Source: Bacteroidota bacterium
GTDB lineage: Bacteria; Bacteroidota; Bacteroidia; Bacteroidales; WCHB1-69
Assembly: GCA_009786185.1 (NCBI GenBank)
Contig: WQTS01000137.1
Coordinates: 855-64,854 of the forward strand
Direction of reading: 5' to 3'
Length of the DNA: 64,000 nucleotides
Of this stretch, positions 1,798 to 27,216 are shown piece after piece; within the stretch, counting starts at the first letter, position 1, and every line of letters starts with the position of its first letter. Under the pieces are notes generated by a model. It did not search any database. It was not told the origin of the DNA and saw only the letters and a list, made by a program, of their open reading frames with translations. The translations under genes were made by a program, and so were the position numbers.

Positions 1798-1800
1798 ATA

Positions 1801-2577: not shown

Positions 2578-2589
2578 GATTACTTGTTT

Positions 2590-3038: not shown

Positions 3039-3041
3039 ATA

Positions 3042-5226: not shown

Positions 5227-5258
5227 TGTTATTCGTAGTTATTTGTTTGTAATTGCTT

Positions 5259-7385: not shown

Positions 7386-7402
7386 TGCTTAGGGTTTGGT
7401 AG

Positions 7403-7875: not shown

Positions 7876-7899
7876 TGTTTTGTTTTTTAAATGTTAAAC

Positions 7900-8304: not shown

Positions 8305-8339
8305 AACTGTTAATTTTTTAATTCTTAATTTTTAATTCT

Positions 8340-9575
8340 TTACGCCTGACCTACTTTGAACCCCAAATAGCAATCAATGTATTTCGGGTAAGCGTAGGGT
8401 TTCACGCGCAAACGCACATCTAATTGGGAAGTAGCTACCACGTTTTGGTTGGTATCAATATAACACTCAACACCGGTATCGTTGGGGTCGCTGGGGTCAT
8501 TGCCAAGGTTACGATAAGCGGTCATATTGTTCATAATGGCACGCTCTACGCTGTTTTGAATACTTTTTGCTATCGGTGCGGGGATACGTCCCTTGTCATC
8601 AACCGGAAGTTCTTCATTCAACTCCTCAAGTAGGGTAATGTAGCCAATTCTATACGCTTTGTCAACTATTCTGCGCCTCGGAATCAATGCGTAGTCGTCG
8701 GTTACCTTTGTCGCCAGTTTGTCATCGGAAAAGAAGTAACCGGCTTTACCAACAAAAGTGCGGAAGGTGATAAACCCTTTGTCATGGATAACTTCCACGT
8801 CGGCATCTTCTACCATTTTATCCTGTATGTAAAGTTTGCTCACAGGCAACGCACCGCTTCTTACACGGGCAATGGAACGCTGTACCGGAATGCTTGCCAG
8901 TGTACCGGAAAGCGTTCCCAGTGTGGCGCCATTGCTGCCACAAACAGTATCGCCAATAAGAATACCTACACGGTTAAGGTCGCCCTGGTGGAGTCCTTTC
9001 AGGTCGGCAGGAACACCGTTAAAATGTCTGCCCTCTAAAAATACAATGCTGGGTGCAAAACAAACGTCGGCTGTGTGAACGCCCAACTTTTGGGCTTCAG
9101 TAGCCGCCAAATAAACATCTTCATCCAAACCATCTAAAATAGTAGGGGTGTATGTGGCAGCATCTTTTTTAAAGCAGAACAAAAAGCGGACGGCGCCATT
9201 GGAATACTCTACCAGTTTCTTGCCGTAGCTTTTGGTTTTATCCACCATATCGGACATTTTTACCGTATCGGCAACGCACATAAAGTATAACTTGCTGCCT
9301 TGCGGCGCAATATCATAGTGCTCTTTTACGGCTTTATACATATTGGCATTTGGATCAGGAGTAAACACTTCCTCGCCGTTAATAATTTCGGTAGTTCCTG
9401 CAGTAACCCCAAAATCTGCCAATGCGTCAAATTTGGTCATCAAATAGGGTTTGTTCAGTTCTAACTTTCCTGGAACTGCAACCCCCGTGTAAATATGCCC
9501 GCACACGCCGTCATCCATTGGCGACGAGGAGCCGAGCAATCCGTTTTCAAAAATTATTTTTACTCTTGATAACAT
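8340..9575 (-). CDS. contractile tail sheath protein
   Basis: 411 aa, the first gene of the sheath-tube-chaperone-tape measure series. Confidence 0.6.
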   Translation of the reverse strand: MLSRVKIIFENGLLGSSSPMDDGVCGHIYTGVAVPGKLELNKPYLMTKFDALADFGVTAGTTEIINGEEVFTPDPNANMYKAVKEHYDIAPQGSKLYFMCVADTVKMSDMVDKTKSYGKKLVEYSNGAVRFLFCFKKDAATYTPTILDGLDEDVYLAATEAQKLGVHTADVCFAPSIVFLEGRHFNGVPADLKGLHQGDLNRVGILIGDTVCGSNGATLGTLSGTLASIPVQRSIARVRSGALPVSKLYIQDKMVEDADVEVIHDKGFITFRTFVGKAGYFFSDDKLATKVTDDYALIPRRRIVDKAYRIGYITLLEELNEELPVDDKGRIPAPIAKSIQNSVERAIMNNMTAYRNLGNDPSDPNDTGVECYIDTNQNVVATSQLDVRLRVKPYAYPKYIDCYLGFKVGQA

Positions 9576-9579
9576 CGTA

Positions 9580-10023
9580 CTACTGTTTAAAAGTTTCTAA
9601 CTTGCTTTTCGGATACTGTTTAAGAGCGTTTTTCGCACTTTCTTCATTAGTAAAAAAGTATCCGTTCACACAATACACCTCTTTTAGGTCATGCTTTTTC
9701 ATGATTTCAAAAGCCGACTTTTCAAGAGGATTCTCCGTTTTTTTAGGTGAGTCCCCTCCCTTTTTTTGCTCGCCAGGATCTCCTCCTGTTAGGTCTGTTT
9801 TATCGCCGCTGGTACCGCCAGTGTCGTTATTAGTTTCTTCGCCTTCCTGTTTCGCTTTGGCTTCCGCTTCTGCCTTTTCTTTAGCTTCCTGCTCCGCTTT
9901 TGCTTTGGCCTCTGCCTCTGCTTTTTTGGCGGCTTCCTTTTCTGCAGCTTTTTTAGCTGCCTGTTCTGCTTTGGCGGCTGCTTGTGCCGCTTTTTCTTCC
10001 GGTGTTAATGGTTTATTTGACAT
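9580..10023 (-). CDS. Ala/Lys/Glu-rich low-complexity virion-module protein
   Basis: 147 aa. The N-terminal ~60 aa are AKE repeats (AAQAAAKAEQAAKKAAEKEAAKKAEAEAKAKAEQEAKEKAEAEAKAK), followed by a Gly/Thr/Asp linker and a small globular C-terminus. Confidence 0.4.
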   Translation of the reverse strand: MSNKPLTPEEKAAQAAAKAEQAAKKAAEKEAAKKAEAEAKAKAEQEAKEKAEAEAKAKQEGEETNNDTGGTSGDKTDLTGGDPGEQKKGGDSPKKTENPLEKSAFEIMKKHDLKEVYCVNGYFFTNEESAKNALKQYPKSKLETFKQ

Positions 10024-10035
10024 GATATTAATTTT

Positions 10036-10521
10036 TTAAGTTTCTACAATAATTACTGGGATTGCTTTTATCTTCCCTGTGTTTTCTTTTTTCTTTTCGT
10101 ATTGGGCGAAAGAGAAAGTAACCTTAAACCAAACATTATTCTTTTCAAATGTAAAATCGCTTTCCGATTGGCGAACCAATTGCGTTGTGTCATCTACTTT
10201 TAACCCTTCAAAATGTTGAAAAATTTCTTCTTTGGAATCCAACAGCTCAATGGTTTCGTCTCTTAGCTCTGCTTTGTTAAAAGTGTCGGTTACTAACTCT
10301 TGATAAAAATATATACTTACGGTAGAGTCTCCTATTTGCCTGTGTTTTGCGAGGTTTGAAAAGCTCGCGCCTCCAAATTCAACTAATAATGCCGGTACCG
10401 GTATGGGATAATTTTCAGTATCTCGCTCAAATTGCTTTTTTTGCAAGTCAATGTACTGCAAGTGGGGCATTTTTGCTTGTGCCGTCTCTTCTACCAGTAA
10501 GTATATATCTTTAAGTTTCAT
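10036..10521 (-). CDS. head-tail module protein (unknown)
   Basis: 161 aa, between the capsid and sheath genes, separated from the capsid gene by only a 2-nt gap. Confidence 0.3.
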   Translation of the reverse strand: MKLKDIYLLVEETAQAKMPHLQYIDLQKKQFERDTENYPIPVPALLVEFGGASFSNLAKHRQIGDSTVSIYFYQELVTDTFNKAELRDETIELLDSKEEIFQHFEGLKVDDTTQLVRQSESDFTFEKNNVWFKVTFSFAQYEKKKENTGKIKAIPVIIVET

Positions 10522-10523
10522 TG

Positions 10524-11573
10524 CTACGCTTTTGCTAAATAAATTAAGCCTGAATAGCGGTTTGCGCTCATTTGAAAATCGGATTTAAACCTGTGTTGGA
10601 ATCCAAATTCATAAGCACGCCCTGTCGGGTTTTGAGATTTATTCAAATAGAACATTTCGTACATACCACCGGCACGGAACACTTCGCTTTTACAGAACAG
10701 GAGCGCACACGGAACCACGTTACCTCCAATAAGTGCACCCTGAGGCGCCAATTTATTTTGCGCAACATCCCATCCGATACCTAACTTGTCGCCTAACGAT
10801 TTATGAATTTTAAAGCCGTAGTACTCTACCATCGTGGGCTTAATTGTACCGTTTGGCGTAAGGTTTTTAAGCTGTCCTTTTAATATTTCATTATTGTTTA
10901 CCAAATCCCACCACATATCTGAGGGCAACACCAAATTCCTTCCGTCCGGGAACTCTTTGTTGTCGCAGTCGCGGGCTAAGGCAACAATATCATCAAGAGT
11001 AAGCATCTTATAGCCGCCTCTCGCCGGTCCCGAACTCGCCTGAATCGAAATCTTATTACCCGACTGTTTTGGCGCCCATGCGTAAGCCGTGTCCTGTACC
11101 TCTTTCTTTATAATGGCGTCTGCCGACTTCTTTGTGTAATACTGTACTTTTTCAAATGGCAGTGCGTGCAATAAAGCGTTTCTAATCTTGTAATTTTGCG
11201 AATCGTAAACGTCCAATTCAACTTTATGAACGGTCTCTTCCGGCTCTACGCTATCAATATCCGAAATCCTGTTTTTATATACGCTTGGGTCTGCCCCGGC
11301 TTCCGGAAATACCAATGTTTGTCCTTCGCTGACAAACATACTTAAGTCCTCTGCTTCATTCATCCATGTTTCAATCGCATCATATTCCTCCTTTAACGAT
11401 CGGAGAAAAACAATTTTTTGCGTATCCAAAGTAAGCGCGGCGCCCGCATCCATTAACACGGTTCCGCTACCGGCAACCAACAATCCAATACCGGTAGGCG
11501 TTGCCGCTCCTAACGATAAAATACCTGCCACAAATATGGCGACAATCGTAATAAATCCTAATAACTTTTTCAT
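10524..11573 (-). CDS. major capsid protein
   Basis: 349 aa, immediately downstream of the protease-scaffold gene. It has an unusual hydrophobic, Gly/Ala-rich N-terminus; an alternative start is M41 at 11453. Confidence 0.55.
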   Translation of the reverse strand: MKKLLGFITIVAIFVAGILSLGAATPTGIGLLVAGSGTVLMDAGAALTLDTQKIVFLRSLKEEYDAIETWMNEAEDLSMFVSEGQTLVFPEAGADPSVYKNRISDIDSVEPEETVHKVELDVYDSQNYKIRNALLHALPFEKVQYYTKKSADAIIKKEVQDTAYAWAPKQSGNKISIQASSGPARGGYKMLTLDDIVALARDCDNKEFPDGRNLVLPSDMWWDLVNNNEILKGQLKNLTPNGTIKPTMVEYYGFKIHKSLGDKLGIGWDVAQNKLAPQGALIGGNVVPCALLFCKSEVFRAGGMYEMFYLNKSQNPTGRAYEFGFQHRFKSDFQMSANRYSGLIYLAKA

Positions 11574-11602
11574 TGTTTACTTTCTTTTTTTGATTAATAC
11601 TT

Positions 11603-12604
11603 TTATTCAGCTTTTAAGTGCATGGCTTTGCTTTCCTGGGCAAAGTCCATTTCCAACTTTTTAAATTTTTCCGGTTCATTTTTAGCCATTAGCTCAAGCC
11701 CCTGCGGATCCTTTTTAAACCATTCGAGGTAATTCCAACCGTCCCGCCCGTTAGCAGATTTACCGGAGCCATCTTTTCCAAAGTTTTCCAATTTTGCACT
11801 TAGTTCTTTGCGTTCCTGCTCTTTTTTTTCTGTTTCTTCTGTTTTAGAGGTTTCCTCCACTTTTTCCGGTGTCGGTTCAGGGCGTGCCTCCAACATTTTT
11901 TCTACGCTGTCGGGATCGGTAATTGCCAATTTTTTCAAATGCTCTACTTCACCGTCAGCCACAACGCCGCGTTTTTGATGAAGTTTAATGAGAAGGGTAG
12001 CGTTTCGCTCCTTTTCGGTGGATAGCTGTTTGCTTAGCTCATCCACGTTGTTTTTTTCTTCTTTGTCCATTGTTTCTGGGTTTTCGTTTAACTTGATTTC
12101 TTTTAAATGATATTCACTCCCTGAATGGGATAGTTTTAATTCATTGTTATTTGATAATACTATTGCGTTTTTTTGTCCGGGAAGCGTTACGAGACTAATC
12201 TCCAAAAGTTCGCTTTTTGTTACAGTTCCATATCTTTGCCCTGGTACTAACAGGGAAGCATTATCACTTTCTTCAATCGGATCTATCCAAAGAGAACAGG
12301 CTTTCATGAATCCGTCCGCATATTTCCAATAAAGTTTTACTGCAAATTCATCGTTTCTATCAAATTCTACTGTTCCCAGCAGCTTCTCACCTTCTACACG
12401 TACGTTTTTCCACCTCCCAACCGGTATGTCTCTTACTTCATGGCGAAAGCAACAAATTGGATTTGCATTAAATGCTGTTAAATCAATGCCATCAACCAAA
12501 AGCCTCCACCCTTTCCGGTTTAGCGTATTGTCGCAAATTACGAAATCAAACTCTAATTTTTCGGGGAGTTCGCGGTTGCCTGAATTTTTACTCTTGTCTG
12601 CCAT
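11603..12604 (-). CDS. prohead protease fused to a scaffold domain (Mu gpI/Z-like arrangement)
   Basis: The N-terminal half resembles an S78/HK97-type prohead protease (FVICDNTLNRKGWRLLVDGIDL, CCFRHEVRDIPVGRW). The C-terminal half is a Glu/Lys-rich coiled coil. The start was moved to MADKSKNSG (ATG at 12604); the track start at 12685 adds an odd hydrophobic leader. Confidence 0.6.
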   Translation of the reverse strand: MADKSKNSGNRELPEKLEFDFVICDNTLNRKGWRLLVDGIDLTAFNANPICCFRHEVRDIPVGRWKNVRVEGEKLLGTVEFDRNDEFAVKLYWKYADGFMKACSLWIDPIEESDNASLLVPGQRYGTVTKSELLEISLVTLPGQKNAIVLSNNNELKLSHSGSEYHLKEIKLNENPETMDKEEKNNVDELSKQLSTEKERNATLLIKLHQKRGVVADGEVEHLKKLAITDPDSVEKMLEARPEPTPEKVEETSKTEETEKKEQERKELSAKLENFGKDGSGKSANGRDGWNYLEWFKKDPQGLELMAKNEPEKFKKLEMDFAQESKAMHLKAE

Positions 12605-12685
12605 AAAAACACTTTTTACTCTTGTTTTAGGTGGCAAAAATAAAACGCATAAATGAATCAAATAGAAAACATTGTTATCATTCAT

Positions 12686-13281: not shown

Positions 13282-13563
13282 ATGAGAAAACTGATAAGAA
13301 ATTTGGTTAGAAAAAATGAGCGGATCATGGCATTAATTACATGGTTCAATCGCTGGAGAGCCGTACGCTACTTTAAACGCATTAAACGCCGGGCAGACAA
13401 GCTAAAGAGGCAAACCGGAAGCCAGGTATTTGTTGTTAAAATAAAAGGCAATGTAACATATCTTACTAAGAAGCAATTCAAAGATATGCGGGCAAAAAAA
13501 ATGTTCCCCAAGCACTTTACTGCCGACTCTCTTAAACGCATTTCATTATACCATACCGCATGA
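13282..13563 (+). CDS. small basic hypothetical phage protein
   Basis: 93 aa, Arg/Lys-rich. It overlaps the TerL start by 4 nt. Confidence 0.35.
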   Translation: MRKLIRNLVRKNERIMALITWFNRWRAVRYFKRIKRRADKLKRQTGSQVFVVKIKGNVTYLTKKQFKDMRAKKMFPKHFTADSLKRISLYHTA

Positions 13564-15194
13564 CAAAACGAGAGCTGCAAGACCTTCGAGATCGGTACAT
13601 TCAACAGTCGAATCTTATCCGTAAAAGTACGGTAGAATCCATTATTAAGGAGCCTGAGGCTGAGCAGGAAAAACGTATAAAAATGCTGCTAAAGCCGGAA
13701 AATTACGGCTTGCTTTTCGACTATTATTTTGGTAGGGAAACCCCTATACCCTTGGCAGACTCACCAAGTGCGTGGTTCCATATTGACGTTTACAAAGAGC
13801 TTTATTTTAAGAATTACATTACGCTCTTTAATATCATATTTCGGGGCGGAGCAAAAAGCACGCACGCAAATTTAGGTTATCCGTTTGGGCTTAAGCAAAG
13901 TGAACTTGCAAAGTTTTTCCTGGTAGTGGGACAAAATGAAATGCGCGCAGCAATGCTCCTGCAGGATTTACAGGTACAGTTTGAGAGCAACGAGCGGATT
14001 ATTCGTGATTTTGGAGCGCAGAAAAGTTACGGAAGCTGGGCAGACGGGCAATTTGAAACTACAGACCGTTGCACTTTCATGGCTTTGGGTATTGACCAGC
14101 CCTTTCGCGGGTTACGGGCAAACGGTGTGCGTTTGGAATATGCCTCCATTGATGACATTGAGGATATGAAACGCTCGCTTAACACGTCTCTTATTCAGGA
14201 ATACTGCAATAAAATAACCGGTGATATTCAGGGGGCTTTCTCAAAAAACAGCGAACGAACCATCATCAATAATAATTACTTTGTAAACAACGGAATTATT
14301 GCTACTATGTTAAAGCGCAAAGGCTTTAATCCAAAGAAACTAAAAACCACCGAAAACTTTGTAAAACGGGAAAAATACGCTACCCTGTTTTTGGTAAACC
14401 TTACAACAAAATATTATCAGGAAATAGAAGCCAATCCGGATACGCAGTGGGAACCAAGCTGGGAACGTTACACAAAAGAGGACTGCCTGCGCAAAATTGA
14501 ACAGTATAAAAACGACAAGGCTACACTGTCGAATGAGTTTTACAATACACCGGTAAAAGTAGGGCGCCTGTTTAAAGCTGAAAAAATAAAATGGGTAAAA
14601 CCACGCCCACTTAAAGAGTATGACTTAATCGTGAATTTTTGGGACTTCTCATATTCAGCACAGGGCGATACGAAGGCAAACGTATCTATCGGGTGCCGCC
14701 CCGATGGGATGACGGTATTAAATCTGTTTTGCAAGAACTGTGATATTGCAGATGCTTTGCAATACCATTTTACCAACATTTACACGATGTTTAAACAAAA
14801 TAGCAACGTAGTAAGTTTCTACGATGCCAACGTATCTCAAAAATCAATTTATGAACCGGTATTGATTGCAGCAGCCCAAAAATACAAGTCAAACTTTATT
14901 CCGTTACCGTCCCACAACCCAACAGACAAATACATAAAAATCAGTACCATTCTTGGAAGTGCATTTGGAAATGACAGGCTGGCATTTTCGGAAGACTTAC
15001 AAAACTCCTCCGACTGGGAGGAGGCATCACACCAGCTTTTCAGTTTTGAAAAAGGCAGCAAAATACACGACGACTTCCCCGATGCGCTCTCAGAGTGTGT
15101 AAGGCAAGCACAACTATTATATTGCATTATGCCGGAAGGAGACATGGAAATTACAAAGCCCACTTTCGGTAAAAGAAAAAGAGGAGGATACTAA
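13560..15194 (+). CDS. terminase large subunit
   Basis: 544 aa, upstream of the portal gene, with the size and layout of an ATPase-plus-nuclease protein. Confidence 0.75.
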   Translation: MTKRELQDLRDRYIQQSNLIRKSTVESIIKEPEAEQEKRIKMLLKPENYGLLFDYYFGRETPIPLADSPSAWFHIDVYKELYFKNYITLFNIIFRGGAKSTHANLGYPFGLKQSELAKFFLVVGQNEMRAAMLLQDLQVQFESNERIIRDFGAQKSYGSWADGQFETTDRCTFMALGIDQPFRGLRANGVRLEYASIDDIEDMKRSLNTSLIQEYCNKITGDIQGAFSKNSERTIINNNYFVNNGIIATMLKRKGFNPKKLKTTENFVKREKYATLFLVNLTTKYYQEIEANPDTQWEPSWERYTKEDCLRKIEQYKNDKATLSNEFYNTPVKVGRLFKAEKIKWVKPRPLKEYDLIVNFWDFSYSAQGDTKANVSIGCRPDGMTVLNLFCKNCDIADALQYHFTNIYTMFKQNSNVVSFYDANVSQKSIYEPVLIAAAQKYKSNFIPLPSHNPTDKYIKISTILGSAFGNDRLAFSEDLQNSSDWEEASHQLFSFEKGSKIHDDFPDALSECVRQAQLLYCIMPEGDMEITKPTFGKRKRGGY

Positions 15195-16922: not shown

Positions 16923-18125
16923 TTGGATAAATTGTATTTCAACAACAATTTAATATCATTTCAGCTATGTTTAAATGAGTTTGCCGAAACGCTACAACTT
17001 ACCGCAAAACCGCAAGCCCATAAAATTATTGAGGATATTAAAAACGGATATGCCGGCGCGCATCCGGAACTGTATAACGAATACTGCAGCAATCTTAAAA
17101 AAGCTGTAGCCCGTGTTTTTCAAAACTCTGAATATGGCGACCGGTTCTTTGACTTGCGAGCGCAATTTGAGGCAAATGCCGCACGATTTTCGGCATACAA
17201 AGCCTACCATGCCACACAGCAAATAAATGCCAAGCGTGCCGATAAAAACGGCGTGGAACGCAGCTTTGAAGCATACCAAAAAGAAGCGCAAAAAGTGATA
17301 AGCGCCTTTAACCGTTATCAGGTAGCAGAGCACAACACTGCCGTGGCGCGATGCAGGACAGCAAAGCAGTGGCAGGAGTTTACCGGCGATAAAACCGGAA
17401 ACGAAATATTTCCCTACATTATGTGGCTGCCAAGCCGTAGCGTAACGCGCAGGGAGGAACACATTGTATTTTACAACAAGTACTGGCCCAAAGATTCCCC
17501 ATTTTGGAACCAAAACCAACCCGGTAATCTTTGGAACTGTAAATGCGACTGGCAGGAAACAGACGGCAGCGATGGAACACCGGGCGAGGACACGTGGAAA
17601 CAGGTAAATCATAAAGGGCTGGAAGGAAACCCCGCACAAACAGGTGAGATATTTTCAGATAAGGCTACCTACTTTACACAAGTAAACGCCAGGCAAAGAA
17701 GTGAAATTGAGAAAGAACACAGGCATTTTTCAAAAGAAGAGTGGAAATCGAAACTAAGTCAATTTTACGAGAAAACTGCGAAAGTAGAGATAGAAAATAA
17801 ACCCGCGAAGGTAGGATTTGACAAATATGGGCTCCGGCACTACCTGCAGGATTTATGTGGTGATAATTTTGTTTTAAAGAACAATCTCATACCACACTTG
17901 GACAAAATTATTGAAAGCGGAACACTGGTAGCTCACGAAGCAAACACAATGTATGAAAGCAAGAAGGCTAACCCCTACAAAAGAAAAATTATAGAGTTTT
18001 TTTATTTTAAGGTAACGCTACCCAATAAAAAAAATGCATTTATTTCAGTTTCAAAATTCAGTGATTCAGACTACCGGCTGTATGCAATTAGTAGCAATTT
18101 AAGAAAAACAGCCGGGTTGTATTAA
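16923..18125 (+). CDS. MuF-like head morphogenesis protein with a ~185-aa C-terminal extension
   Basis: The MuF-type motif NQPGNLWNCKCDW lies near residue 205. The TTG start is as given in the track. About 185 further residues follow the MuF domain. Confidence 0.7.
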   Translation: MDKLYFNNNLISFQLCLNEFAETLQLTAKPQAHKIIEDIKNGYAGAHPELYNEYCSNLKKAVARVFQNSEYGDRFFDLRAQFEANAARFSAYKAYHATQQINAKRADKNGVERSFEAYQKEAQKVISAFNRYQVAEHNTAVARCRTAKQWQEFTGDKTGNEIFPYIMWLPSRSVTRREEHIVFYNKYWPKDSPFWNQNQPGNLWNCKCDWQETDGSDGTPGEDTWKQVNHKGLEGNPAQTGEIFSDKATYFTQVNARQRSEIEKEHRHFSKEEWKSKLSQFYEKTAKVEIENKPAKVGFDKYGLRHYLQDLCGDNFVLKNNLIPHLDKIIESGTLVAHEANTMYESKKANPYKRKIIEFFYFKVTLPNKKNAFISVSKFSDSDYRLYAISSNLRKTAGLY

Positions 18126-18662: not shown

Positions 18663-18692
18663 AAAAAGCCCCGAATTTTTTGGGGCTTTTTT
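18661..18692. terminator. bidirectional rho-independent terminator between the convergent head and early operons
   Basis: The sequence is aaaaaaAGCCCCgaattttttGGGGCTtttttt: a 6-bp GC stem flanked by an A-run and a T-run. Confidence 0.7.
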
Positions 18693-18939
18693 ATTGGTCG
18701 AAGGTTAATGTAGTTTGATTACCCGGATTCTGTTTTTCTTTTTCCTGCTCAATACGGCTACGCAAGTTTCCTTCTCCTAAAATGCGAATGAAAGAATCAT
18801 ACCCCTCAAAATACTGTTTTTCTTTTCGCAGGTTTTTCCATATTTGTTTTAGCGTAATGTATATGTACCTTTCCTGCTGTTTTTTTACAAGCTCCTGTAC
18901 GTGTTGCGCCTTTTCCAAATAATTAATAGATGTTCTCAT
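18691..18939 (-). CDS. hypothetical phage protein (last gene of the early/middle operon)
   Basis: 82 aa, charged and helical. A regulator role is only a guess from its position. Confidence 0.3.
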   Translation of the reverse strand: MRTSINYLEKAQHVQELVKKQQERYIYITLKQIWKNLRKEKQYFEGYDSFIRILGEGNLRSRIEQEKEKQNPGNQTTLTFDQ

Positions 18940-18952
18940 GATTCAATGTTAT

Positions 18953-19294
18953 TTAAAAACTCATTCTCATTTGTATGGCACGTTGTACCTGCGGAGCTAT
19001 TTGTTGGGTGTATAATAAACTGTAGGCTGCCCTTTCGTAGCTACCATTCAACTGCATTGCTTCGCCTATGTGCTTCATAAAAACTACCATTTCAATAATA
19101 GAGAAACTGAAATTGTAGATTTTTTGATATTTGTACGTTTTAGCTTCAAATCTTGCGTTTAACACCTCCAACGTTTCCTTTTCGTAAAGCGAACGTGCAT
19201 CGGCAACACTAAGATTGTATGAAGCGTAAAGAACATACGTTCTTATTACCTCGTACTCGGTTCGTGTGAGCCTTATTTTAATCTTTGTTGCCAT
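18953..19294 (-). CDS. hypothetical phage protein
   Basis: 113-aa ORF, co-directional with and tightly spaced among its neighbours. Confidence 0.3.
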   Translation of the reverse strand: MATKIKIRLTRTEYEVIRTYVLYASYNLSVADARSLYEKETLEVLNARFEAKTYKYQKIYNFSFSIIEMVVFMKHIGEAMQLNGSYERAAYSLLYTQQIAPQVQRAIQMRMSF

Positions 19295-19300
19295 AACTTT

Positions 19301-19717
19301 TTAATTATTCCATAATTCAGCATTCAAATACGTTTCCGCATATTTTTTGCGCGTTCCGTCGGGAATAGAAGAAAAATACTTCCCAATAAACCGGTAGGCT
19401 TTCACACGCTCCGTTTCCCGCATTCTATTCCATTTTATAAGCGTTTTTTTCTTGCTGCTATTCAGTTTGTCATCATAGCGTTTCCAAAACATGTCAAAGG
19501 TAACGTCCTGCATCATTTCGGTTACCGTTACCGTATCGTATTGCTTATAAAGTCCAAGTGCATGAACATTAGCCGGAATGTTTTTTAAAAACCATTTTTG
19601 TGCGTCCTCACTAATATTGGTTTCTAAAAAACAAATACCTTTAAATTTGTCTGATTCATCGAATTTCAATTCGATATATCCCTCAAACCTGGTGGATGTG
19701 ATGTGGAATATTTTCAT
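19301..19717 (-). CDS. hypothetical phage protein
   Basis: 138 aa. The C-terminal FDMFWKRYDDK...KKKTLIKWNRM...AETYLNAELWNN resembles a motif common in phage replication-region proteins. Confidence 0.35.
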   Translation of the reverse strand: MKIFHITSTRFEGYIELKFDESDKFKGICFLETNISEDAQKWFLKNIPANVHALGLYKQYDTVTVTEMMQDVTFDMFWKRYDDKLNSSKKKTLIKWNRMRETERVKAYRFIGKYFSSIPDGTRKKYAETYLNAELWNN

Positions 19718-19998
19718 AATATTATTAATTTTAGTTTAAGTTCTTGCGCAATATGGTATTCTAATTTTGCTCCTCTGCTTTCTGCCCAGTCCGGCAACAA
19801 ATAAATGGCATCGCATTGCGCCAGCTGCTCTATACATTTTTTCATACACTTTTCCCAACTCCACGACTGCGAAACCAACCGGATCGGATTAACAACAGTA
19901 TGGCCGGCCCGTTTTAATTCAAATTCCTTTGCGTTGAATTTGATAAAAACGTCTTGAAAACTAAGTCCTGAAATTTTGCCGGCGAGATAGACTTTCAT
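19714..19998 (-). CDS. DUF4406-like protein (nucleoside 2-deoxyribosyltransferase-like fold)
   Basis: 94 aa. MKVYLAGKISG ... CDAIYLLPDWAESRGAKLEYHIAQEL matches the DUF4406 pattern as I recall it. Confidence 0.6.
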   Translation of the reverse strand: MKVYLAGKISGLSFQDVFIKFNAKEFELKRAGHTVVNPIRLVSQSWSWEKCMKKCIEQLAQCDAIYLLPDWAESRGAKLEYHIAQELKLKLIIL

Positions 19999-20228
19999 TG
20001 TTTATACTTTTTACACTTTCTAAAATCGCTAATCTTAATAAATTTATAAAAGCGAAATTCGTGGTACCACTTCTTTTCGTCATTCTTTTTATACTTTTGA
20101 TATAAAGCGCAATTTTTCCTATTTATACATATCTCAGACCCTTTCTTGAAATTGTAATAAAATCCCAAACAACAATCCATTGATTTGTTATGCTCTTGCA
20201 CTATATTAGCCCAAATCTTTGTTTTCAT
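19995..20228 (-). CDS. 77-aa Lys/Cys-rich protein
   Basis: It has five Cys and many Lys residues. Its start overlaps the stop of the radical-SAM gene by 23 nt. Confidence 0.35.
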   Translation of the reverse strand: MKTKIWANIVQEHNKSMDCCLGFYYNFKKGSEICINRKNCALYQKYKKNDEKKWYHEFRFYKFIKISDFRKCKKYKQ

Positions 20229-21057
20229 ATTGTATCATTTTTAGTTTTGTAGCCTTAATTTCAGGTATTACCCAATCTCTTTGGAATCTTCTCCATGTTT
20301 CGTCATATTTACCTTCAAAATCCCTATAAAGCATCGCAAAAGGAAAAAATCCTGCTTTCCATGCTTGTACTAATCTTTTTTCAGCTTTTTCAAAGGTATC
20401 TCCTTTATGCCCGATGAGCACGTAACAGCACACCGTGTGGCTATTATTTTTAAAACCTGCATTTCTCAAAAAAATACCTGCTTGTATGAGAGGATCGAAA
20501 TCATTTTTCGTATCATAAGCAAAAAATAACGAAGACGGTTTAAGTTCCTTTAACTTGAATGCCATTTCTTGTGTTAATAATTTTGCCTCCAAACCGCCTG
20601 TAAATTTTGGTTTATTTTTCTGCCTTTTTAGCATTTCAAAAACGGCGTTTATATGATGTTCAGAACATGCAAGTAAATTATCATCCTGAATAATATAACC
20701 ATCAACAATCGGCAATTCTATTAAATCGCCTTGTACTTTATGAACATTACAGAACCAACATTTATTCGGGCAGCCTCGCGAAGTAATCACATATCCTTTT
20801 TTCAGATACAATCCGGGCACAAACTCTCCACCTGGTTGTCCAAATGCAACACCGCCTATCTTTGTGTTAAATCCTGCCCATCGCCATTGATTATACAAAT
20901 ATTCTGCACGCCTTAAATCCCACGTGAATGTAACAGATACATGTACTTCATCGGCTTCATCAAATATCACAGGCTTGCAGTTAATCCTTACGTTCTCATC
21001 GTCCGGAGTTGCTTTTGTTTTTCGAGGAAACACACGAATAATACGCTTATCTGTCAT
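20206..21057 (-). CDS. radical-SAM protein (family unassigned)
   Basis: A CxxxCxxC cluster is present in SRGCPNKCWFCNV, about 95 aa from the N-terminus. 283 aa. Confidence 0.7.
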   Translation of the reverse strand: MTDKRIIRVFPRKTKATPDDENVRINCKPVIFDEADEVHVSVTFTWDLRRAEYLYNQWRWAGFNTKIGGVAFGQPGGEFVPGLYLKKGYVITSRGCPNKCWFCNVHKVQGDLIELPIVDGYIIQDDNLLACSEHHINAVFEMLKRQKNKPKFTGGLEAKLLTQEMAFKLKELKPSSLFFAYDTKNDFDPLIQAGIFLRNAGFKNNSHTVCCYVLIGHKGDTFEKAEKRLVQAWKAGFFPFAMLYRDFEGKYDETWRRFQRDWVIPEIKATKLKMIQYENKDLG

Positions 21058-21068
21058 TGTTTGTTTCT

Positions 21069-21686
21069 CTAATCAATTGAACTGAAATTAAGGTCAATAT
21101 TTTGGTATTTACCGTTTCCATCTTTTACCCAAACACGGAAATACGTTTTTGAATCAGGACGACGAATTGACTGCTCAAGCAATGTCATAGCATCTTGGAA
21201 CGTTTCGTCTTGTATTTTTGACCGATATTTTAAAAGCCCCATTACCTTTTTTGTATCTAACTTTCCACGAGAGGTCGTAAAGGCATCCGTTACAAGTTCC
21301 TTTGCAAATTCCGCTTTCCCCTGAATGTTTTCGCTAAGGAACTTATCAAATTTTTCTTTACTGGCTTTTATTGTCAAATCATCAAAATCAATGCGTTCGT
21401 TTATTGCAACTTCAATTTTTATTGACCTGTCAAAATTAAACCAGGTGTAATTTCCTTTTGCATCTGTTTTTGCTCCTTTTTCTGCCATGGCCGCAGCATA
21501 GATTTCATTACAAACCTTTCTTAATTCCAATTTGAATTCTGAAAGTTGCTTGTTTAGGGAGGTCGCTTTTTTTACAATAGCTGAAGACTTGTTCTCCATA
21601 AGTCTTTCTAATTTTGTGATGCGTGATACAGGGATTTGCACACCTGCTTCATCTGTCCACATACTGTCTTTTGTTGTGTGTATCAT
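21069..21686 (-). CDS. DUF3164-like Mu-type early protein
   Basis: 205 aa. AKGNYTWFNFDRSIKIEV ... FQDAMTLLEQSI ... YFRVW ... YQNIDLNFS follows the DUF3164 pattern seen in Mu-like phages. Confidence 0.55.
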   Translation of the reverse strand: MIHTTKDSMWTDEAGVQIPVSRITKLERLMENKSSAIVKKATSLNKQLSEFKLELRKVCNEIYAAAMAEKGAKTDAKGNYTWFNFDRSIKIEVAINERIDFDDLTIKASKEKFDKFLSENIQGKAEFAKELVTDAFTTSRGKLDTKKVMGLLKYRSKIQDETFQDAMTLLEQSIRRPDSKTYFRVWVKDGNGKYQNIDLNFSSID

Positions 21687-21699
21687 AACTATTACGGTT

Positions 21700-21933
21700 T
21701 TAATTGTTACTAAATTCTTTTATGCTTTTTCTTTTTGGCAAGTATTTTGCCTTGTTTTTACGCTGTTTGTTTATTGCACTGTCAAGGCAAATGCGCACAA
21801 TGGCGTTACCTGACTGTAGGAGTCTTGCCGCTTTTAAATGGGCAAGGTTGCCCATAATGCCGCCACATGGCATTCCATCGGACGCAATGAAATCAAGGCG
21901 GCTTTTGTTTGGATAATAATCTGCTGTTGTCAT
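21700..21933 (-). CDS. hypothetical phage protein
   Basis: 77-aa ORF in the operon orientation. Confidence 0.3.
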   Translation of the reverse strand: MTTADYYPNKSRLDFIASDGMPCGGIMGNLAHLKAARLLQSGNAIVRICLDSAINKQRKNKAKYLPKRKSIKEFSNN

Positions 21934-21944
21934 AATTTTATGAT

Positions 21945-22118
21945 TTAAAGGATTGATAATTGTCTGGTATATTTATACTTTTCTATTAGTTTTTGTAGAT
22001 AAAAGTTGGCAGTATCATATAGGGGGGGGCAAATAATGACCCTTTTGCGCGCATCAATTTTAAAGCCATCACTTTTGGCTTTCCGGTGTAAATAATAGCG
22101 AGTGTATTTCTTTTCCAT
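21945..22118 (-). CDS. 57-aa hypothetical protein containing a C8 homopolymer (not in the ORF track)
   Basis: My own translation: MEKKYTRYYLHRKAKSDGFKIDARKRVIICPPLYDTANFYLQKLIEKYKYTRQLSIL. It fills the gap between two genes. A G8 run lies on the + strand at 22022-22029. Confidence 0.3.
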   Translation of the reverse strand: MEKKYTRYYLHRKAKSDGFKIDARKRVIICPPLYDTANFYLQKLIEKYKYTRQLSIL

Positions 22119-22129
22119 AACTAATGATT

Positions 22130-22519
22130 TTATTGTTTTGATAAAATAGCCTCCAATTTTTTACGCAACTCATTCAACTCTTTTAAACTCAAATGGTAAA
22201 GCCTTTTTCCATTGCAGATTTTACGACTTTCCAAATAAGCATTTACATCTTTCCAGTTTGTTGTATCTATACCCAATTTTTGCATCACTTTCAATACACC
22301 ACTACGGGCTTTTTTTATGGCGACATTGTCATTAATCGCTTTGTCCATTGTTTGGAGCATTTCTAAATACAGGGTAGGGCACAGTTCGTAGAATTCGCTC
22401 AAAGAAGTAGTACCGCCTTCGCTCCATTCAAAAACAAGTTCTTCTTTTGTACATCCAGGCATTTGTTTTAATAAAGCAAAGAACCGGCTGTGGCTGGGTT
22501 TGGTTTTTACGGTGCTCAT
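22130..22519 (-). CDS. GemA-like (Mu gp16 / DUF1018-like) protein
   Basis: 129 aa. Its position and the C-terminal pattern (KKARSGVLKVMQKLGIDTTNWKDVNAYLE...LSLKELNELRKKLE) support the call. Confidence 0.5.
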   Translation of the reverse strand: MSTVKTKPSHSRFFALLKQMPGCTKEELVFEWSEGGTTSLSEFYELCPTLYLEMLQTMDKAINDNVAIKKARSGVLKVMQKLGIDTTNWKDVNAYLESRKICNGKRLYHLSLKELNELRKKLEAILSKQ

Positions 22520-23355
22520 GATTCGTTAAATATGTTATAATCTCTGCTTACACAATTGCTCGGTAAATCTTCGCGGCTAACACCGGCAATACTCAATAAG
22601 GAATCTTTAAAATATACCTTTGGGGGATTTACCTGTGTGCGCGTAAACCAATTCACACTTCCCATAAATGCCCTTGCTTCAATTGGACTGTATTTTTTAC
22701 CACTCTCTAAACCGATTTTATACAAATTGGTAAAGGGTGCGGTTTGGCGTATCATTTCCTTACTGCTTTTAAAGTCAATGATAGGTTCAATTGAAGCCCA
22801 AACCTTAAATCCGACATCATGTAATTTTTTCATCGCTTCGATTCGTTCAGTATTTGTAGAAGCATTAGGTTCAAGCTCATCGTGTCCGGTAAGCGTAAAT
22901 CCGAAAGCAATAAAATCTATAATACTATCAACCTCTATTCTTCTTTCTCTGTAAGCATTAATCCCATTCAATAGGATTTTTACCCAACTGGCACGTTTTG
23001 TTAGGATCTTACATTTCACATTGTTTTTTGCTGCTATACAAATAGCATCCCAAGTTAACTCTATCGTTCCTTTTAACATAGGATCGGTAGTGAATGAGAA
23101 AAATAATCCATGTTTTTGCAATTCAGGCAAATTTGCTTTTAGCTCTTTTTCAAAAACTTCGATGGCGTGTTCTCTATTTTTAAAACAGGCCTTTAATGTC
23201 GGCAAAATACCCCATGTATGTGCCATTATACCACGTTTGCAGTAACAATAATGGCAGTTGTGCGAGCAACCGGTGTAGAAGTTGCAAGCCCAATAGCTAT
23301 ACTCTCCGGCTTTTCCTGAGGGGTTGTAAATTGCTCTTCCTTTAAACTGTTTCAT
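22516..23355 (-). CDS. radical-SAM protein (SplB/COG1533-like motif context)
   Basis: A CxxxCxxC cluster is present in NFYTGCSHNCHYCYC near the N-terminus. 279 aa. Confidence 0.7.
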   Translation of the reverse strand: MKQFKGRAIYNPSGKAGEYSYWACNFYTGCSHNCHYCYCKRGIMAHTWGILPTLKACFKNREHAIEVFEKELKANLPELQKHGLFFSFTTDPMLKGTIELTWDAICIAAKNNVKCKILTKRASWVKILLNGINAYRERRIEVDSIIDFIAFGFTLTGHDELEPNASTNTERIEAMKKLHDVGFKVWASIEPIIDFKSSKEMIRQTAPFTNLYKIGLESGKKYSPIEARAFMGSVNWFTRTQVNPPKVYFKDSLLSIAGVSREDLPSNCVSRDYNIFNES

Positions 23356-23356
23356 A

Positions 23357-23701
23357 TTATTTGTTTTCTAAAATTGCTAATAATTCATCTAATAATGCGC
23401 TTTCAGCGGATTCGTAATCACTTGAACTTGCTGCATCATAACTTGTTCTTGGTTTCAACCTTCTTTCTCCTACATCTGTAACTTGCGGCACTTGGTATCT
23501 ACCCATGTAAGTAGGTGAAACTACATCAAAGAATGTTACGCTATTTTTTATTTCTTTTTCATCTCTAATCCACTTTAATGCAAGTGCAACCGTAGGTCTA
23601 ATGCTTTCAAGCGCCCAATACCAATCAAACCCTAATTTCTTAAGTCTTTTAAATTGTTCTTCTGTTACTAATTGCAGTCTGTTTTCTATTCCGTATTTCA
23701 T
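23357..23701 (-). CDS. hypothetical phage protein
   Basis: The start was moved to MKYGIENR (ATG at 23701) because the track start at 23830 overlaps the upstream gene by 119 nt. Confidence 0.35.
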   Translation of the reverse strand: MKYGIENRLQLVTEEQFKRLKKLGFDWYWALESIRPTVALALKWIRDEKEIKNSVTFFDVVSPTYMGRYQVPQVTDVGERRLKPRTSYDAASSSDYESAESALLDELLAILENK

Positions 23702-23711
23702 AATTCTAACT

Positions 23712-24320
23712 TTAAATATTACCCCAATATTTCTCTGCCCGTTCCGGACACACATCAATCGGCTCTCCGCCACCATATCGACTAACCGGAAACGCCCTGT
23801 GTCCTTCAACACGAAAAACACAGTTAGCATCGCGCTGGATCCTGCGCGCAGTATTACCGTCCGGATTCATTCCCTTTACATGGCTGATGTAAACAAATAA
23901 CTTGTCATTAAAGGAGTGTTTTAATTTCTTGTATTGCTGAAAATTCATCTCTGCAAACTGCACAGAATCAATAATGATAATATCGGCAGAGCGTTGCTTT
24001 TTTAATCGCTTGGGTAAATCGTTTACATCCTCTTTGTCCAAAAACAAAACCCCTTTTGAATCTATCAAACCGGTACGCTCAATAGCCATTTTAATAGTAA
24101 GGCTTAATCCCTCTTCAATGGAATTGTATAGCACGTTTCCAAAGCCGGAGAGATACTTTGCCAACATCATCGCAAAAGATGTTTTCCCATTTTTGGGCGG
24201 CCCATATATAAACCATGTGCCGGTTAGCTCCGGTTTGCCCACAGCAGCCAACCAATCGCCTGTAAAGTCAAGCGTGTTGAAATTTGTGGTCATGATATTA
24301 TGTACGGTTAAGGCACGCAT
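23712..24320 (-). CDS. small RecA-fold P-loop ATPase
   Basis: Walker A is in IYGPPKNGKTSF and Walker B in ADIIIIDSV. About 200 aa. An alternative start is at 24293. Confidence 0.55.
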   Translation of the reverse strand: MRALTVHNIMTTNFNTLDFTGDWLAAVGKPELTGTWFIYGPPKNGKTSFAMMLAKYLSGFGNVLYNSIEEGLSLTIKMAIERTGLIDSKGVLFLDKEDVNDLPKRLKKQRSADIIIIDSVQFAEMNFQQYKKLKHSFNDKLFVYISHVKGMNPDGNTARRIQRDANCVFRVEGHRAFPVSRYGGGEPIDVCPERAEKYWGNI

Positions 24321-24321: not shown

Positions 24322-25206
24322 TTAGGCTATTTTTCTAATTTCTTTATAAATACGTCTCAGGCTTGGCATACCATCCTCGCCAAGCGTGCTTTTTAGCAAT
24401 TTGGGAACATCCACATTGTCCGGTGCATTTGCCTTAATAATCATTGCCGCCGTTTGGTTCATAAAGTTTCGGCTGTCCTCTTTTCCTGCCGGTATTACCT
24501 GTCCGAACCTTTTCCCGAACCGGCTAAATACTTCCGTATAGCCTACCTTTTTACAGTCAATAGAGCGGCGTATTTTTTCCTTCAAACCGTCGGCGCCCAT
24601 CATATAGTAACCGCACGTCATTTCGGTGGCGTTCCAAAGGGCTTTTATCTCCAAAAAGGCATCGTATTGCAAGTCGCCGGCTTCATCAAGAATAATAAGG
24701 GGATTGGGCAGCGTTTTGAGGTAAAACACCAAGTCCTCGTAAACGTCCGAATATTTTCCGGTACTGCCCACCCCAAATTCTTTAGCAATGTAGCGTATCA
24801 GTTTTTGTTTGCTTTTCACTTGCGAACAATCCACGTAAATGGCGTTTTTGTGGGTTTTTACATAGTGTTGTGCCGTGAATGTCTTACCTATATCCGAAAG
24901 GTCGCACAAAAGCGCGGAAAGGCTCTCTTTTTGGCATGTTTCTAACTGTGCCGTGATAAATTGAAACACCGGTGTGTTTACTGCCTTCCAGTCCGGTGCG
25001 TTGCTTAGGTTAACGTCCAATTTACGTGCAATCGTTACCCAGTTGGCATCGCTCAATACCTTTTCTGTTTCGCCCTTCATTATTCTGCTGAACTGCGCAG
25101 CTGAAATACCAAGCGAGGTGGCAAGTTTCGTATCGGATCCTCCAAACGTGGTGCGGCGTTCTTTTAACGCTTCTAAAATTCTGTTTTTAAATTCTAATGT
25201 AATCAT
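24322..25206 (-). CDS. MuB-like AAA ATPase (transposition target-capture protein) with an N-terminal HTH
   Basis: The HTH is LATSLGISAAQFSRIMKG, Walker A is DLSDIGKTF and Walker B is LIILDEAGD. The gene lies immediately downstream of the transposase gene. Confidence 0.7.
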   Translation of the reverse strand: MITLEFKNRILEALKERRTTFGGSDTKLATSLGISAAQFSRIMKGETEKVLSDANWVTIARKLDVNLSNAPDWKAVNTPVFQFITAQLETCQKESLSALLCDLSDIGKTFTAQHYVKTHKNAIYVDCSQVKSKQKLIRYIAKEFGVGSTGKYSDVYEDLVFYLKTLPNPLIILDEAGDLQYDAFLEIKALWNATEMTCGYYMMGADGLKEKIRRSIDCKKVGYTEVFSRFGKRFGQVIPAGKEDSRNFMNQTAAMIIKANAPDNVDVPKLLKSTLGEDGMPSLRRIYKEIRKIA

Positions 25207-25224: not shown

Positions 25225-27216
25225 TTATAATTGTGCTAATGCTAATTCGGCATAATCCCCTACAAATTCGTATTCATCGTAATTTTCCACCGGTGCCGAC
25301 TCCACAATCTCCACCGGAACGGCCACGATGGTGCGGGAGGTAATCGCATCCATCACGCCGACCTGTGGAATATAGTTTCGTATCTCTTTAATATTTTTGT
25401 CAAATTTGGCAATGCGTCCGTGCTGATACAGCATATTTTCGCGATCGGCATCTGTACGTTCAACAGCACATTCATTGTATGATTTGAGCGCCCTGTTGGT
25501 AGCTTCACCGATATACATTTCATCCTGGTATAGATAAACCGTTTCAACCGATCCGCTTTCAGTCGGTAGCCAATAGGCTTCCACTTTGCGGTTGTTTGGT
25601 TTTAGTTTGCGCAGGCAATTCAAGTCCGCCAGTTCAAAGGTTTCGTTGTTTGCCATTACGTAATCGTTGTTGTAAATCGTGCAATCCTGTACGTTACCAA
25701 TATAGCGGTACAGTTTCCATTTTTCAATGGCTGTTAGTTCAGGATTAACAAACTTCATAAACACTTCTTTGCGGGTCATTCCCGGAAAGGTATTTTGCAG
25801 CGGGTGTAATTCGTTGTTGTGAGCTTCTATATCTGCCAGGTCATCGGCAACAATGGTTTGCGGTTGAAATTCCGGCTCCACAAAGTCGCCATCCACTTTA
25901 TTACGAACTACGCTATACGCTTCATGTTTTGCATACCAACGTCCGCGTGAGTGCCCGGCTTTTTTAGAGGATCCGTATTTCAATGCCTTTATAGCATGCT
26001 CAGCGCGTTTTTCCGTTGGGCTGTTGCAAAAACGAATGTGCGGAAATACGGAATTTAACCAGGCGAAGTTTTTCATTAAAAAGTGCTCAACCTCAAGTTC
26101 TGCCGGAGATGGCAACCCTAATTCATCCAACTCACAAAACATATTCCGAAACGCTTCATATACGGTGTCGGCAGTAGGACGGCCCACTATGTACGCAGGA
26201 CGGAACCAGTAACCGCTTACCACATCAACAGCCATATAACTGTTAACCCAACCCCGCACGCTTTTACGGCTCAGCGTTCTGTCATCCATCGAAATTTTAC
26301 TTAATGAGTATTTTCCATTGTGGCGGTTGTGTTTGGGGCGCATTTTGGTATTGTAATCAAAATTGCCGTTTCTATCCATATACACCGCCGTATTATTCAA
26401 TACATCTTTTAGATAGTTCCAAACTGTACCTACAGAAATGTCAAGTGGTCTGCCTTTATATTGGAAATCTTCCGGGAAGAAACACTCACCGCTTTTTTTA
26501 TCGTAAAACTCCTTATTGCCATTAACAAAATCCAAATAATCAGCATGCACGCCTTCAACAAATGGCTTGTCTGTTTTGCGCCACAACGCCAATAAAAGAT
26601 GCTCTGCCGACTTGGATACCTTCCGGGAGGAATCGTTGCCCAACTGACCGTGTAAAATTGACCTGTAACCGTCGTTTAAAAACGCTTTAAACTCCCTTTC
26701 AAAGGTGCGAACATTGCTAACCGGTTTCACGTCATACTCAACACACCTTTCTTTATACCACTCAAAGTTCGCTCTCCAAAGTTTCTCTTTTTTGATTCTG
26801 CCGCCCGATTTTGCCAAATGCTGATTCTGCCGGTGCCAGCCATCCTTTACACCCTTTAAAACGGAAGCCTTAAACGTATATTTATCAACCTGATCGTCCG
26901 TGAGCGTTTTGCCGTCCTGCTTTTTAAACATTTCATAAAAGGCGCGGGCCTGCTGATCAATCTCGACGGAATAAGTAGGTTGTATTTCTTCTTTTTTGGT
27001 AATAGTTGTATTTACATCGCCGAACTTGGCTTGGATAACAGCCTTACGATTAGGTTGTAAACTGTGGTAATTAATGAGAGTTTGATTGTATAATGACCTG
27101 CGAACTATTTGTAAAAGTCCTTTTCTACTATCATTATGAAGCTGATCTTCGCTCAATCCGGCATCCAACCAGTTTGCTTTTGTAATTACCGTAAAACCGT
27201 TATACTCAAAATACAT
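25225..27216 (-). CDS. MuA-like DDE transposase
   Basis: 663 aa. It has an rve-like core (ISMDDRTL, AVDVVSG, LEVEHF as candidate DDE residues) and sits between the Ner-like and MuB-like genes. Confidence 0.75.
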   Translation of the reverse strand: MYFEYNGFTVITKANWLDAGLSEDQLHNDSRKGLLQIVRRSLYNQTLINYHSLQPNRKAVIQAKFGDVNTTITKKEEIQPTYSVEIDQQARAFYEMFKKQDGKTLTDDQVDKYTFKASVLKGVKDGWHRQNQHLAKSGGRIKKEKLWRANFEWYKERCVEYDVKPVSNVRTFEREFKAFLNDGYRSILHGQLGNDSSRKVSKSAEHLLLALWRKTDKPFVEGVHADYLDFVNGNKEFYDKKSGECFFPEDFQYKGRPLDISVGTVWNYLKDVLNNTAVYMDRNGNFDYNTKMRPKHNRHNGKYSLSKISMDDRTLSRKSVRGWVNSYMAVDVVSGYWFRPAYIVGRPTADTVYEAFRNMFCELDELGLPSPAELEVEHFLMKNFAWLNSVFPHIRFCNSPTEKRAEHAIKALKYGSSKKAGHSRGRWYAKHEAYSVVRNKVDGDFVEPEFQPQTIVADDLADIEAHNNELHPLQNTFPGMTRKEVFMKFVNPELTAIEKWKLYRYIGNVQDCTIYNNDYVMANNETFELADLNCLRKLKPNNRKVEAYWLPTESGSVETVYLYQDEMYIGEATNRALKSYNECAVERTDADRENMLYQHGRIAKFDKNIKEIRNYIPQVGVMDAITSRTIVAVPVEIVESAPVENYDEYEFVGDYAELALAQL

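Follow-up and report, generated by a model that had tools for sequence, protein, structure and literature searches.

We examined a 64,000-nt window of a Bacteroidota genome (assembly GCA_009786185.1, contig WQTS01000137.1, positions 855 to 64,854) that contains a Mu-like transposable prophage, recognized by its transposase (phrog_310), transposition ATPase (phrog_296) and Portal_Mu protein. Its early operon carries two genes for radical S-adenosylmethionine (SAM) enzymes, RS1 (22516-23355, minus strand, 279 aa) and RS2 (20206-21057, minus strand, 283 aa), which are optional cargo on a conserved Mu-type backbone. The two belong to separate families, each moving among mobile elements independently. 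As a tentative reading, we propose that both enzymes serve early DNA modification for self-protection, acting on nucleic acid, probably DNA. An initial annotation, made from the nucleotide sequence alone, had described both enzymes together with the DUF4406, DUF3164 and P-loop ATPase genes of the operon; these open reading frames (ORFs), their motifs and their coordinates all held. So did its view that the two are radical-SAM enzymes of mutually unrelated kinds: their profiles have no matches in common, and their nearest folds differ.

Two radical-SAM families

RS1 carries NFYTGCSHNCHYCYC, in which the cluster motif C30-x3-C34-x2-C37 lies within GCSHNCHYCY; the three cysteines are invariant in an alignment of 61 sequences. 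It matches Pfam Radical_SAM (PF04055) at 36.5 bits, above the gathering cut-off of 29.5, as well as phrog_13321. The AlphaFold model (pLDDT 93) has a radical-SAM fold, and its best Foldseek match in the PDB is spore photoproduct lyase (SPL; 4fhg/4fhe, E 1.5e-5, TM 0.58-0.60). Profile alignment of RS1 with SPL places GCsndCeYCY against GCMGHCHYCY and reveals a second common block, EP..S…R…aG.K….PI; both tyrosines of CHYCY, which serve the SPL radical relay, are kept in RS1. SPL (SplB; PDB 4fhc-4fhg) and RS1 thus share fold, GC-x3-CHYCY motif and single-subunit form, and they differ in length (340 versus 279 aa, RS1 having no counterpart of the ~80-aa N-terminal region) and in setting, RS1 being the product of a phage's early operon in an anaerobe that does not sporulate. 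Because SPL is the best fold, the motif and second block are common to both, and the named family models are missed, we place RS1 as a distinct subfamily within the SPL/COG1533 ('DNA repair photolyase') superfamily. Homologues number 2803 among clusters at 90% identity, and many bear the Joint Genome Institute (JGI) label 'DNA repair photolyase'. An intein-containing variant of the superfamily is recorded as NCBIfam NF038136.

Besides the CX3CX2C motif, the RS1 family has four cysteines conserved in at least 90% of the 61 aligned sequences: C24, C57, C209 and C268. The catalytic hydrogen-donor cysteine of SPL is C141 in B. subtilis, and, judging from conservation, an auxiliary Fe-S site or an SPL-like hydrogen donor could be among the four.

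SPL repairs the spore photoproduct; its target is the substituent at thymine C5 in duplex DNA. RS1 might likewise be a true DNA-repair lyase, reversing thymine-dimer-type or other radical-reversible lesions of incoming or replicating phage DNA, with RS2 serving an unrelated function. The nearest fold, the CHYCY motif with its two relay tyrosines, the JGI naming of many homologues and the stand-alone occurrence of RS1 among replication and repair genes would all agree with this. We nevertheless regard such a repair role as improbable: the SPL family model gives RS1 only 18.2 bits against a cut-off of 400 (TIGR04070), the ~80-aa N-terminal region is missing, ultraviolet lesions should be rare in the hosts, which are anaerobes of the gut and elsewhere, and the other characterized SPL-like enzyme of a phage modifies DNA instead of repairing it (PMC8989533).

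RS2 carries SRGCPNKCWFCNV, with the motif C96-x3-C100-x2-C103 (SRGCPNKCWFC) and a GGLEA element. In an alignment of 61 homologues C96, C100 and GGLEA are invariant, and C103 is conserved in at least 90%. The Pfam Radical_SAM score, 23.0 bits, is under the gathering cut-off of 29.5, and the radical-SAM status of RS2 rests on phrog_9298 ('radical SAM domain protein', 1e-23), the motif and the fold. The model (pLDDT 89) has a Rossmann-like, B12-binding-like N-terminal domain of ~70 aa followed by a radical-SAM core. Its sole significant fold match is AprD4 (6fd2, E 6e-6, TM 0.51-0.54), and Foldseek against viral structures (BFVD) returned no match at E <0.02. AprD4 and the B12-binding-domain/MiaB-type enzymes resemble RS2 in having a Rossmann-like N-terminal domain ahead of a core with an RGCPxxCxFC-type motif. 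However, AprD4-type enzymes are 430-460 aa long, against 283 for RS2, and the alignment of RS2 homologues has neither a cobalamin-binding signature nor a second conserved cysteine triad. Likeness in sequence to MgmA, RimO, MiaB and B12-type radical-SAM enzymes is limited to the cluster motif (~30 residues).

The top PDB folds for the two models are all radical-SAM enzymes (SPL, SuiB, MgmA, AprD4, LAM), while PDB sequence searches with RS1 and RS2, as single sequences and as profiles, gave matches at the level of the cluster motif alone. The radical-SAM enzymes usually seen in phages are NrdG and QueE, and the initial annotation's judgment that neither protein is of those types is upheld, in the model searches and in the nearest folds alike. 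NrdG models match neither RS1 nor RS2 at E up to 0.01, and the operon has no gene for a glycyl-radical enzyme (nrdD). QueE models likewise match neither (QueE is rank 20 in the RS1 fold search, E 0.01), and queC, queD, folE and a DpdA-type transglycosylase are absent among the operon ORFs scanned.

RS2 has more than 7783 homologues, counted as clusters at 90% identity, and 1913 clusters at 50% identity. Among species-representative genomes (L249-L328) the protein is 50-66% identical across at least eight phyla, mostly of anaerobes, and the host groups include Bacteroidota, Bacillota, Synergistota, Spirochaetota, Planctomycetota, Dehalococcoidia, Lentisphaerae and other phyla. Such identity across phyla suggests a universal substrate. 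One homologue (P0248, 550 aa) is split by an intein that bears an HNH endonuclease domain and is inserted approximately at the Fe-S cluster motif according to the match coordinates. This intein was the sole informative case in a survey of domain fusions among 150 representatives, which yielded no Rosetta-stone fusion. An apparent DUF4406-RS2 fusion in locus L009 was rejected as an ORF-calling artefact; the genes lie next to each other and use different frames.

Optional cargo and facultative partners

Our neighbourhood statistics rest on pattern-seeded samples of up to 80 loci. The set seeded with MuB comprises 80 loci (58% identity) and is essentially one abundant lineage of the human gut; 32 of its loci have at least 6 kb of downstream sequence. 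The order MuA-MuB-ATPase-DUF4406-129-aa protein-DUF3164 recurs in 30-32 of these 32, with DUF4406, the P-loop ATPase and the 129-aa protein each present in every one, and RS1 and RS2 are found in none. All 11 loci seeded with DUF3164, from several lineages outside that of the window, likewise have MuA-MuB-ATPase-DUF3164 with no radical-SAM gene. Hankyphage and some six other Bacteroidota Mu-like lineages carry neither RS1 nor RS2, in keeping with the initial annotation's remark that radical-SAM genes are unusual in a Mu-type early region. Some Mu-like contigs carry one gene alone: RS2 in L009, where DUF4406 lies directly upstream, and RS1 in L120 and in L141/142, in the latter with DUF4406. 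Among Mu-like relatives, both occur together only in the window's own lineage (L007, L087, L329). Because relatives keep the backbone without radical-SAM genes, or carry just one, we assign MuA, MuB, the ATPase, DUF4406, the 129-aa protein and DUF3164 to the backbone, and RS1 and RS2 to optional cargo.

Between the window and its closest relative, L087, protein identity is 84-89% for the flanking early genes, 59% for RS1 and 70% for RS2. On this comparison the cargo genes diverge faster than the backbone or recombine more. Freshly swapped RS1 or RS2 cassettes were considered and are not clearly supported, DNA identity declining gradually (74-77% versus 83-90% in the flanks); the only sharp break in the DNA alignment is an unalignable segment at 20001-20320.

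That segment coincides largely with a 77-aa Lys/Cys-rich ORF (19995-20228, minus strand, from the ORF list; 5 Cys, 17 Lys), which, as first described, overlaps the RS2 stop by 23 nt. L087 has no DNA match there and has a different, 121-aa ORF in its place. The only match of the 77-aa protein among 5.8 billion protein clusters is to itself, and none of 165 related loci has a match; it is an ORFan in a variable slot and no conserved partner of RS2, and therefore the suggestion that a radical-SAM enzyme matures this peptide is unsupported. The same data bear on the grouping by the initial annotation of RS1, RS2, DUF4406, the Cys-rich peptide and the ATPase as one five-gene module, possibly one that matures the peptide as a ribosomally synthesized peptide with post-translational modifications (RiPP). 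Its attractions are the tight co-directional packing, the 23 nt by which RS2 and the peptide ORF overlap, and the small Cys-rich ORFs that follow RS2-type genes in L111, L058, L068, L075 and L078. Those other ORFs are, however, non-homologous to the ORFan of the window, model scans found no SPASM or RRE domain in RS1 or RS2, and DUF4406 and the ATPase are conserved in relatives without radical-SAM genes. The distribution data thus already largely refute a five-gene module, which we now think very improbable indeed.

After dereplication, RS1 lies within ~10 kb of RS2 in 8 of 32 RS2 lineages, and an RS2-like gene is nearby in 4 of the 38 RS1 lineages that have at least 4 kb of flank. Where the two meet they can be close: an RS2-like gene is 13 nt from RS1 in L145-155, 230 nt in L119 and ~1 kb in L106-115. 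RS2 also adjoins or overlaps other genes of the SPL superfamily, with spacings of -28 nt in L261 (Eubacteriales), -16 in L310 (Spirochaetaceae), +4 nt in L317 (Oscillospiraceae) and -25 in L066. Of the 39 species-level genome loci whose flanks are long enough, RS2 has an SPL-like partner in 6 and the PP-loop partner in 8. SPL-like pairing occurs in none of 91 control Mu-like loci (Fisher p ~1e-3 to 1e-4, a rough figure that is indicative only, because the controls are phylogenetically clumped and not independent). The two genes are mostly apart, and yet they pair more commonly than in the controls.

We read these counts as a facultative partnership, not an obligate pathway. An obligate two-enzyme pathway, in which one enzyme makes or primes an intermediate that the other finishes, would find encouragement in the adjacent or overlapping arrangement of the two gene types in several phyla and in their co-occurrence in at least six backbones (the Mu-like window, the lambdoid L003, L097-100, L106-115, L119 and L145-155). 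It also has a named, if uncharacterized, precedent on mobile elements in the 'radical SAM mobile pair' (TIGR04470/TIGR04471). Against it, 24 of 32 RS2 lineages are without RS1 and 34 of 38 RS1 lineages are without an RS2-like gene, some Mu-like relatives have only one of the two, and in the window itself 1.5 kb and four backbone or small genes separate them; we consider this pathway unlikely.

The named mobile pair A/B (TIGR04471/TIGR04470, respectively) resembles the present case in placing two different radical-SAM genes side by side on mobile elements, and proteins encoded next to RS2 at loci of Bacillota and Spirochaetota match its A member at 116-117 bits (cut-off 355). It differs in that RS2 matches neither family and RS1 matches B weakly; we know of no function for either member.

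A separate observation concerns L111 (3559-11870) and its relatives in L106-L115, which are of another phage type. Here a single co-directional stretch holds DUF4406, a 420-aa protein that looks like RtcB, an RS2-like gene (the core of phrog_9298), a 61-aa ORF (6 Cys), a 245-aa ORF, RS1 and a gene that looks like MazG. The likenesses to RtcB and MazG were judged by eye only, and the 61-aa ORF is not homologous to the 77-aa ORF of the window.

The strongest specific neighbour of RS2 is a PP-loop gene of the PAPS_reduct family (Pfam 7e-28; phrog_424), which lies immediately downstream of RS2 at 43 of 85 loci and in 12 of the 32 lineages delimited at 90% identity. This partner matches the PADLOC models of SspD, BrxP and DndC; PAPS-reductase homologues on mobile elements are uncharacterized and have been suspected of DNA modification (PMC11437467). 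Cytosine-5, Dam-type and N4/N6 DNA methyltransferases are also frequent near RS2. In some Bacillota, RS2 adjoins topoisomerase and relaxase-like genes, which suggests that it resides on conjugative elements besides prophages. RS1, surveyed in 51 lineages, keeps company with replication and recombination genes and has no fixed partner; recurrent neighbours are RuvC-like, ASCH, ParB-like and DUF551-like genes and DUF4406 fusions, and an RS2-like gene appears in 5 of the 51. In phage PDS1, RS1 comes directly after the SSB gene, and the paper on that phage goes no further than speculation about quorum sensing.

DNA modification as a candidate function

In radical-SAM enzymes a [4Fe-4S] cluster is the site at which SAM is cleaved reductively, and the resulting 5'-deoxyadenosyl radical takes a hydrogen atom from the substrate. 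For substrate, chemistry and role we infer the following scheme. Two accessory radical-SAM genes would have been added to the Mu-like early-operon backbone; each product would cleave SAM at its cluster and apply the 5'-deoxyadenosyl radical to nucleic acid, most probably DNA, with RS1 perhaps acting on a flipped-out pyrimidine in the manner of SPL and M6 gp53. Produced early, the enzymes would modify replicating phage DNA, which might then evade restriction-type defences. Each could act alone, and RS2 would often team with an SPL-superfamily enzyme or a DndC/SspD-like PP-loop ATPase.

For RS1, DNA is suggested as the substrate because the characterized SPL-like enzymes, SPL and M6 gp53, act on thymine derivatives in DNA, both at the C5 substituent of the base. 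The latter, a phage-encoded SPL-like radical-SAM enzyme as RS1 is, isomerizes Nα-GlyT on DNA to Cα-GlyT; its authors named it as the first enzyme of the radical-SAM type that installs a DNA modification, and it is the only published case (PMC8989533). For RS2, we favour DNA modification because its partners include DndC/SspD/BrxP-like PP-loop proteins and methyltransferases, because it is conserved across phyla, and because one homologue bears an intein. The idea of DNA modification or counter-defence, already voiced in the initial annotation, thus stands as the best-fitting inference; PADLOC places RS1, RS2 and DUF4406 in no defence-system or anti-defence model.

Several observations weigh against DNA modification. 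M6 gp53 is 480 aa long and aligns weakly with RS1 (hhalign probability 58%, 100 columns), and the genes for 5-hydroxymethyldeoxyuridine (5-hmdU) synthesis, a kinase, aGPT-Pplase and a pyridoxal phosphate (PLP)-dependent decarboxylase that make up its cluster have no counterparts in our operon, whose ORFs include no dUMP hydroxymethylase, 5-HMUDK kinase, aGPT-Pplase or PLP enzyme. RS1 falls below the cut-offs of characterized or named relatives: in addition to TIGR04070, these are Pfam SPL (PF20903; 23.5 bits versus 27), the NCBIfam models PA0069 (43.5 versus 360) and Rv2578c (28.1 versus 430), and radical SAM mobile pair B (19.8 versus 410). The best fold match of RS2, AprD4, is a small-molecule enzyme, at a TM of only ~0.5. 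The PAPS-reductase and methyltransferase partners of RS2 elsewhere are absent from the window, and neighbours devoted to DNA metabolism are expected for nearly any early phage gene. Finally, our literature search found, for either family, nothing beyond the annotation 'radical SAM enzyme', and no paper on radical-SAM anti-defence, phage radical-SAM pairs or DUF5131 in phages. The caution of the initial annotation that function is not deducible from the sequence was justified.

One or both enzymes might instead act on something other than DNA: tRNA or rRNA, a metabolite of the nucleotide pool (possibly together with DUF4406), or a defence-signalling or antiviral nucleotide. The cluster region of RS2 is most like those of MiaB/RimO and B12-type enzymes, and the small-molecule activity of its best fold match points the same way; PP-loop partners are known from tRNA thiolation and preQ0 synthesis too, and DUF4406 and MazG-like genes occur together in some phages. 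We think a non-DNA substrate quite unlikely, given that no defence or anti-defence model was matched, that DUF4406 belongs to the backbone whether or not RS1 and RS2 are there, and that the strongest specific partner of RS2 resembles the DNA-modifying DndC, SspD and BrxP.

A broader form of the DNA-modification proposal is that the RS2 family and an SPL-superfamily enzyme (RS1 or one like pair A), with or without a DndC/SspD-like PP-loop ATPase, would constitute an unrecognized nucleic-acid modification system. We offer this as speculation, and consider it rather doubtful. Similarly doubtful is the further step that such a system spreads horizontally between phages and conjugative elements whose anaerobic hosts belong to at least eight phyla, writing a new DNA mark against host defences.

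The surrounding operon and its significance

The early operon occupies 27216 to 18691 on the minus strand; its genes are co-directional and densely packed, overlapping by 4-23 nt or leaving gaps of at most 18 nt. At its head is the MuA-like transposase (25225-27216, 663 aa; phrog_310, 1.3e-18), followed by the MuB-like protein (24322-25206, 294 aa; phrog_296, 2.6e-36, and AAA_22) and the RecA/DnaB-like P-loop ATPase (23712-24320, 202 aa; phrog_6891, 2.7e-63). The ATPase has AAA_24 and DnaB_C matches under the cut-off, and its hankyphage homologue is annotated 'helicase'. Directly upstream of RS1 lies a small protein of ~114 aa (23357-23701) that has no Pfam or PHROG match; its likely start is Met44 of a 157-aa ORF (23357-23830), as judged from the overlap of that ORF with the ATPase gene. 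Homologues (32-41% identity) precede RS1 by ~0.4 kb in L003/L004 (L003 ~10286) and L092 (~1236), and L003 and L092 are unrelated phage backbones.

Downstream of RS1 come the 129-aa protein (22130-22519; phrog_14123, 1.5e-28), for which the label 'GemA-like' was not confirmed, phrog_14123 being its only match and Pfam giving none, and two small ORFs of 57 and 77 aa (between 22118 and 21700, from the ORF list). The DUF3164 protein (21069-21686, 205 aa; Pfam 1.7e-33), a Mu-type early gene, separates these from RS2. Past RS2 and the ORFan lies the DUF4406 protein, which is nucleoside 2-deoxyribosyltransferase-like (19714-19998, 94 aa; Pfam 1.5e-24, phrog_355), and the operon closes with three small ORFs of 138, 113 and 82 aa (18691-19717), the first of them phrog_35156. 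The 138- and 113-aa proteins share 86-87% identity with their counterparts in L007/L087.

Among the Mu-type markers of the window, Portal_Mu scores 1.3e-60, with weaker matches to Mu F (Phage_Mu_F) and a virion-morphogenesis family, and Phage_tail_S and DUF3164 are also matched in Pfam. Gene orientation is unlike that of phage Mu. A 544-aa ORF (13560-15194), the Mu-type portal and the F- and G-like genes lie on the plus strand and run towards the early operon, whose 3' end on the minus strand they meet near 18.68 kb. The Mu F-like head-morphogenesis protein (16923-18125) has a C-terminal LPD3 (large polyvalent protein-associated) domain. Further upstream (342-12685), large ORFs lie on the minus strand. 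A promoter and terminator scan gave no signal beyond shuffled expectation, with a sigma-70 consensus that is unsuited to Bacteroidota.

At this locus, then, the radical-SAM genes are optional cargo outside the Mu-type early machinery, and membership of the DUF4406, ATPase and peptide genes in an RS1 or RS2 pathway should not be assumed. More widely, RS1 and RS2 represent two large uncharacterized families carried by phages and further mobile elements whose hosts are anaerobes of the gut and the environment; they tend to pair, repeatedly but not obligatorily, and plausibly both are DNA modifiers. M6 gp53 is so far the single radical-SAM enzyme known to install a DNA modification. If RS1 and RS2 do modify DNA, they would bring new chemistry to the arms race between phages and hosts, and could account for restriction or sequencing anomalies of the DNA of anaerobe phages; RS2, given its strong conservation across phyla, is a tractable biochemical target.

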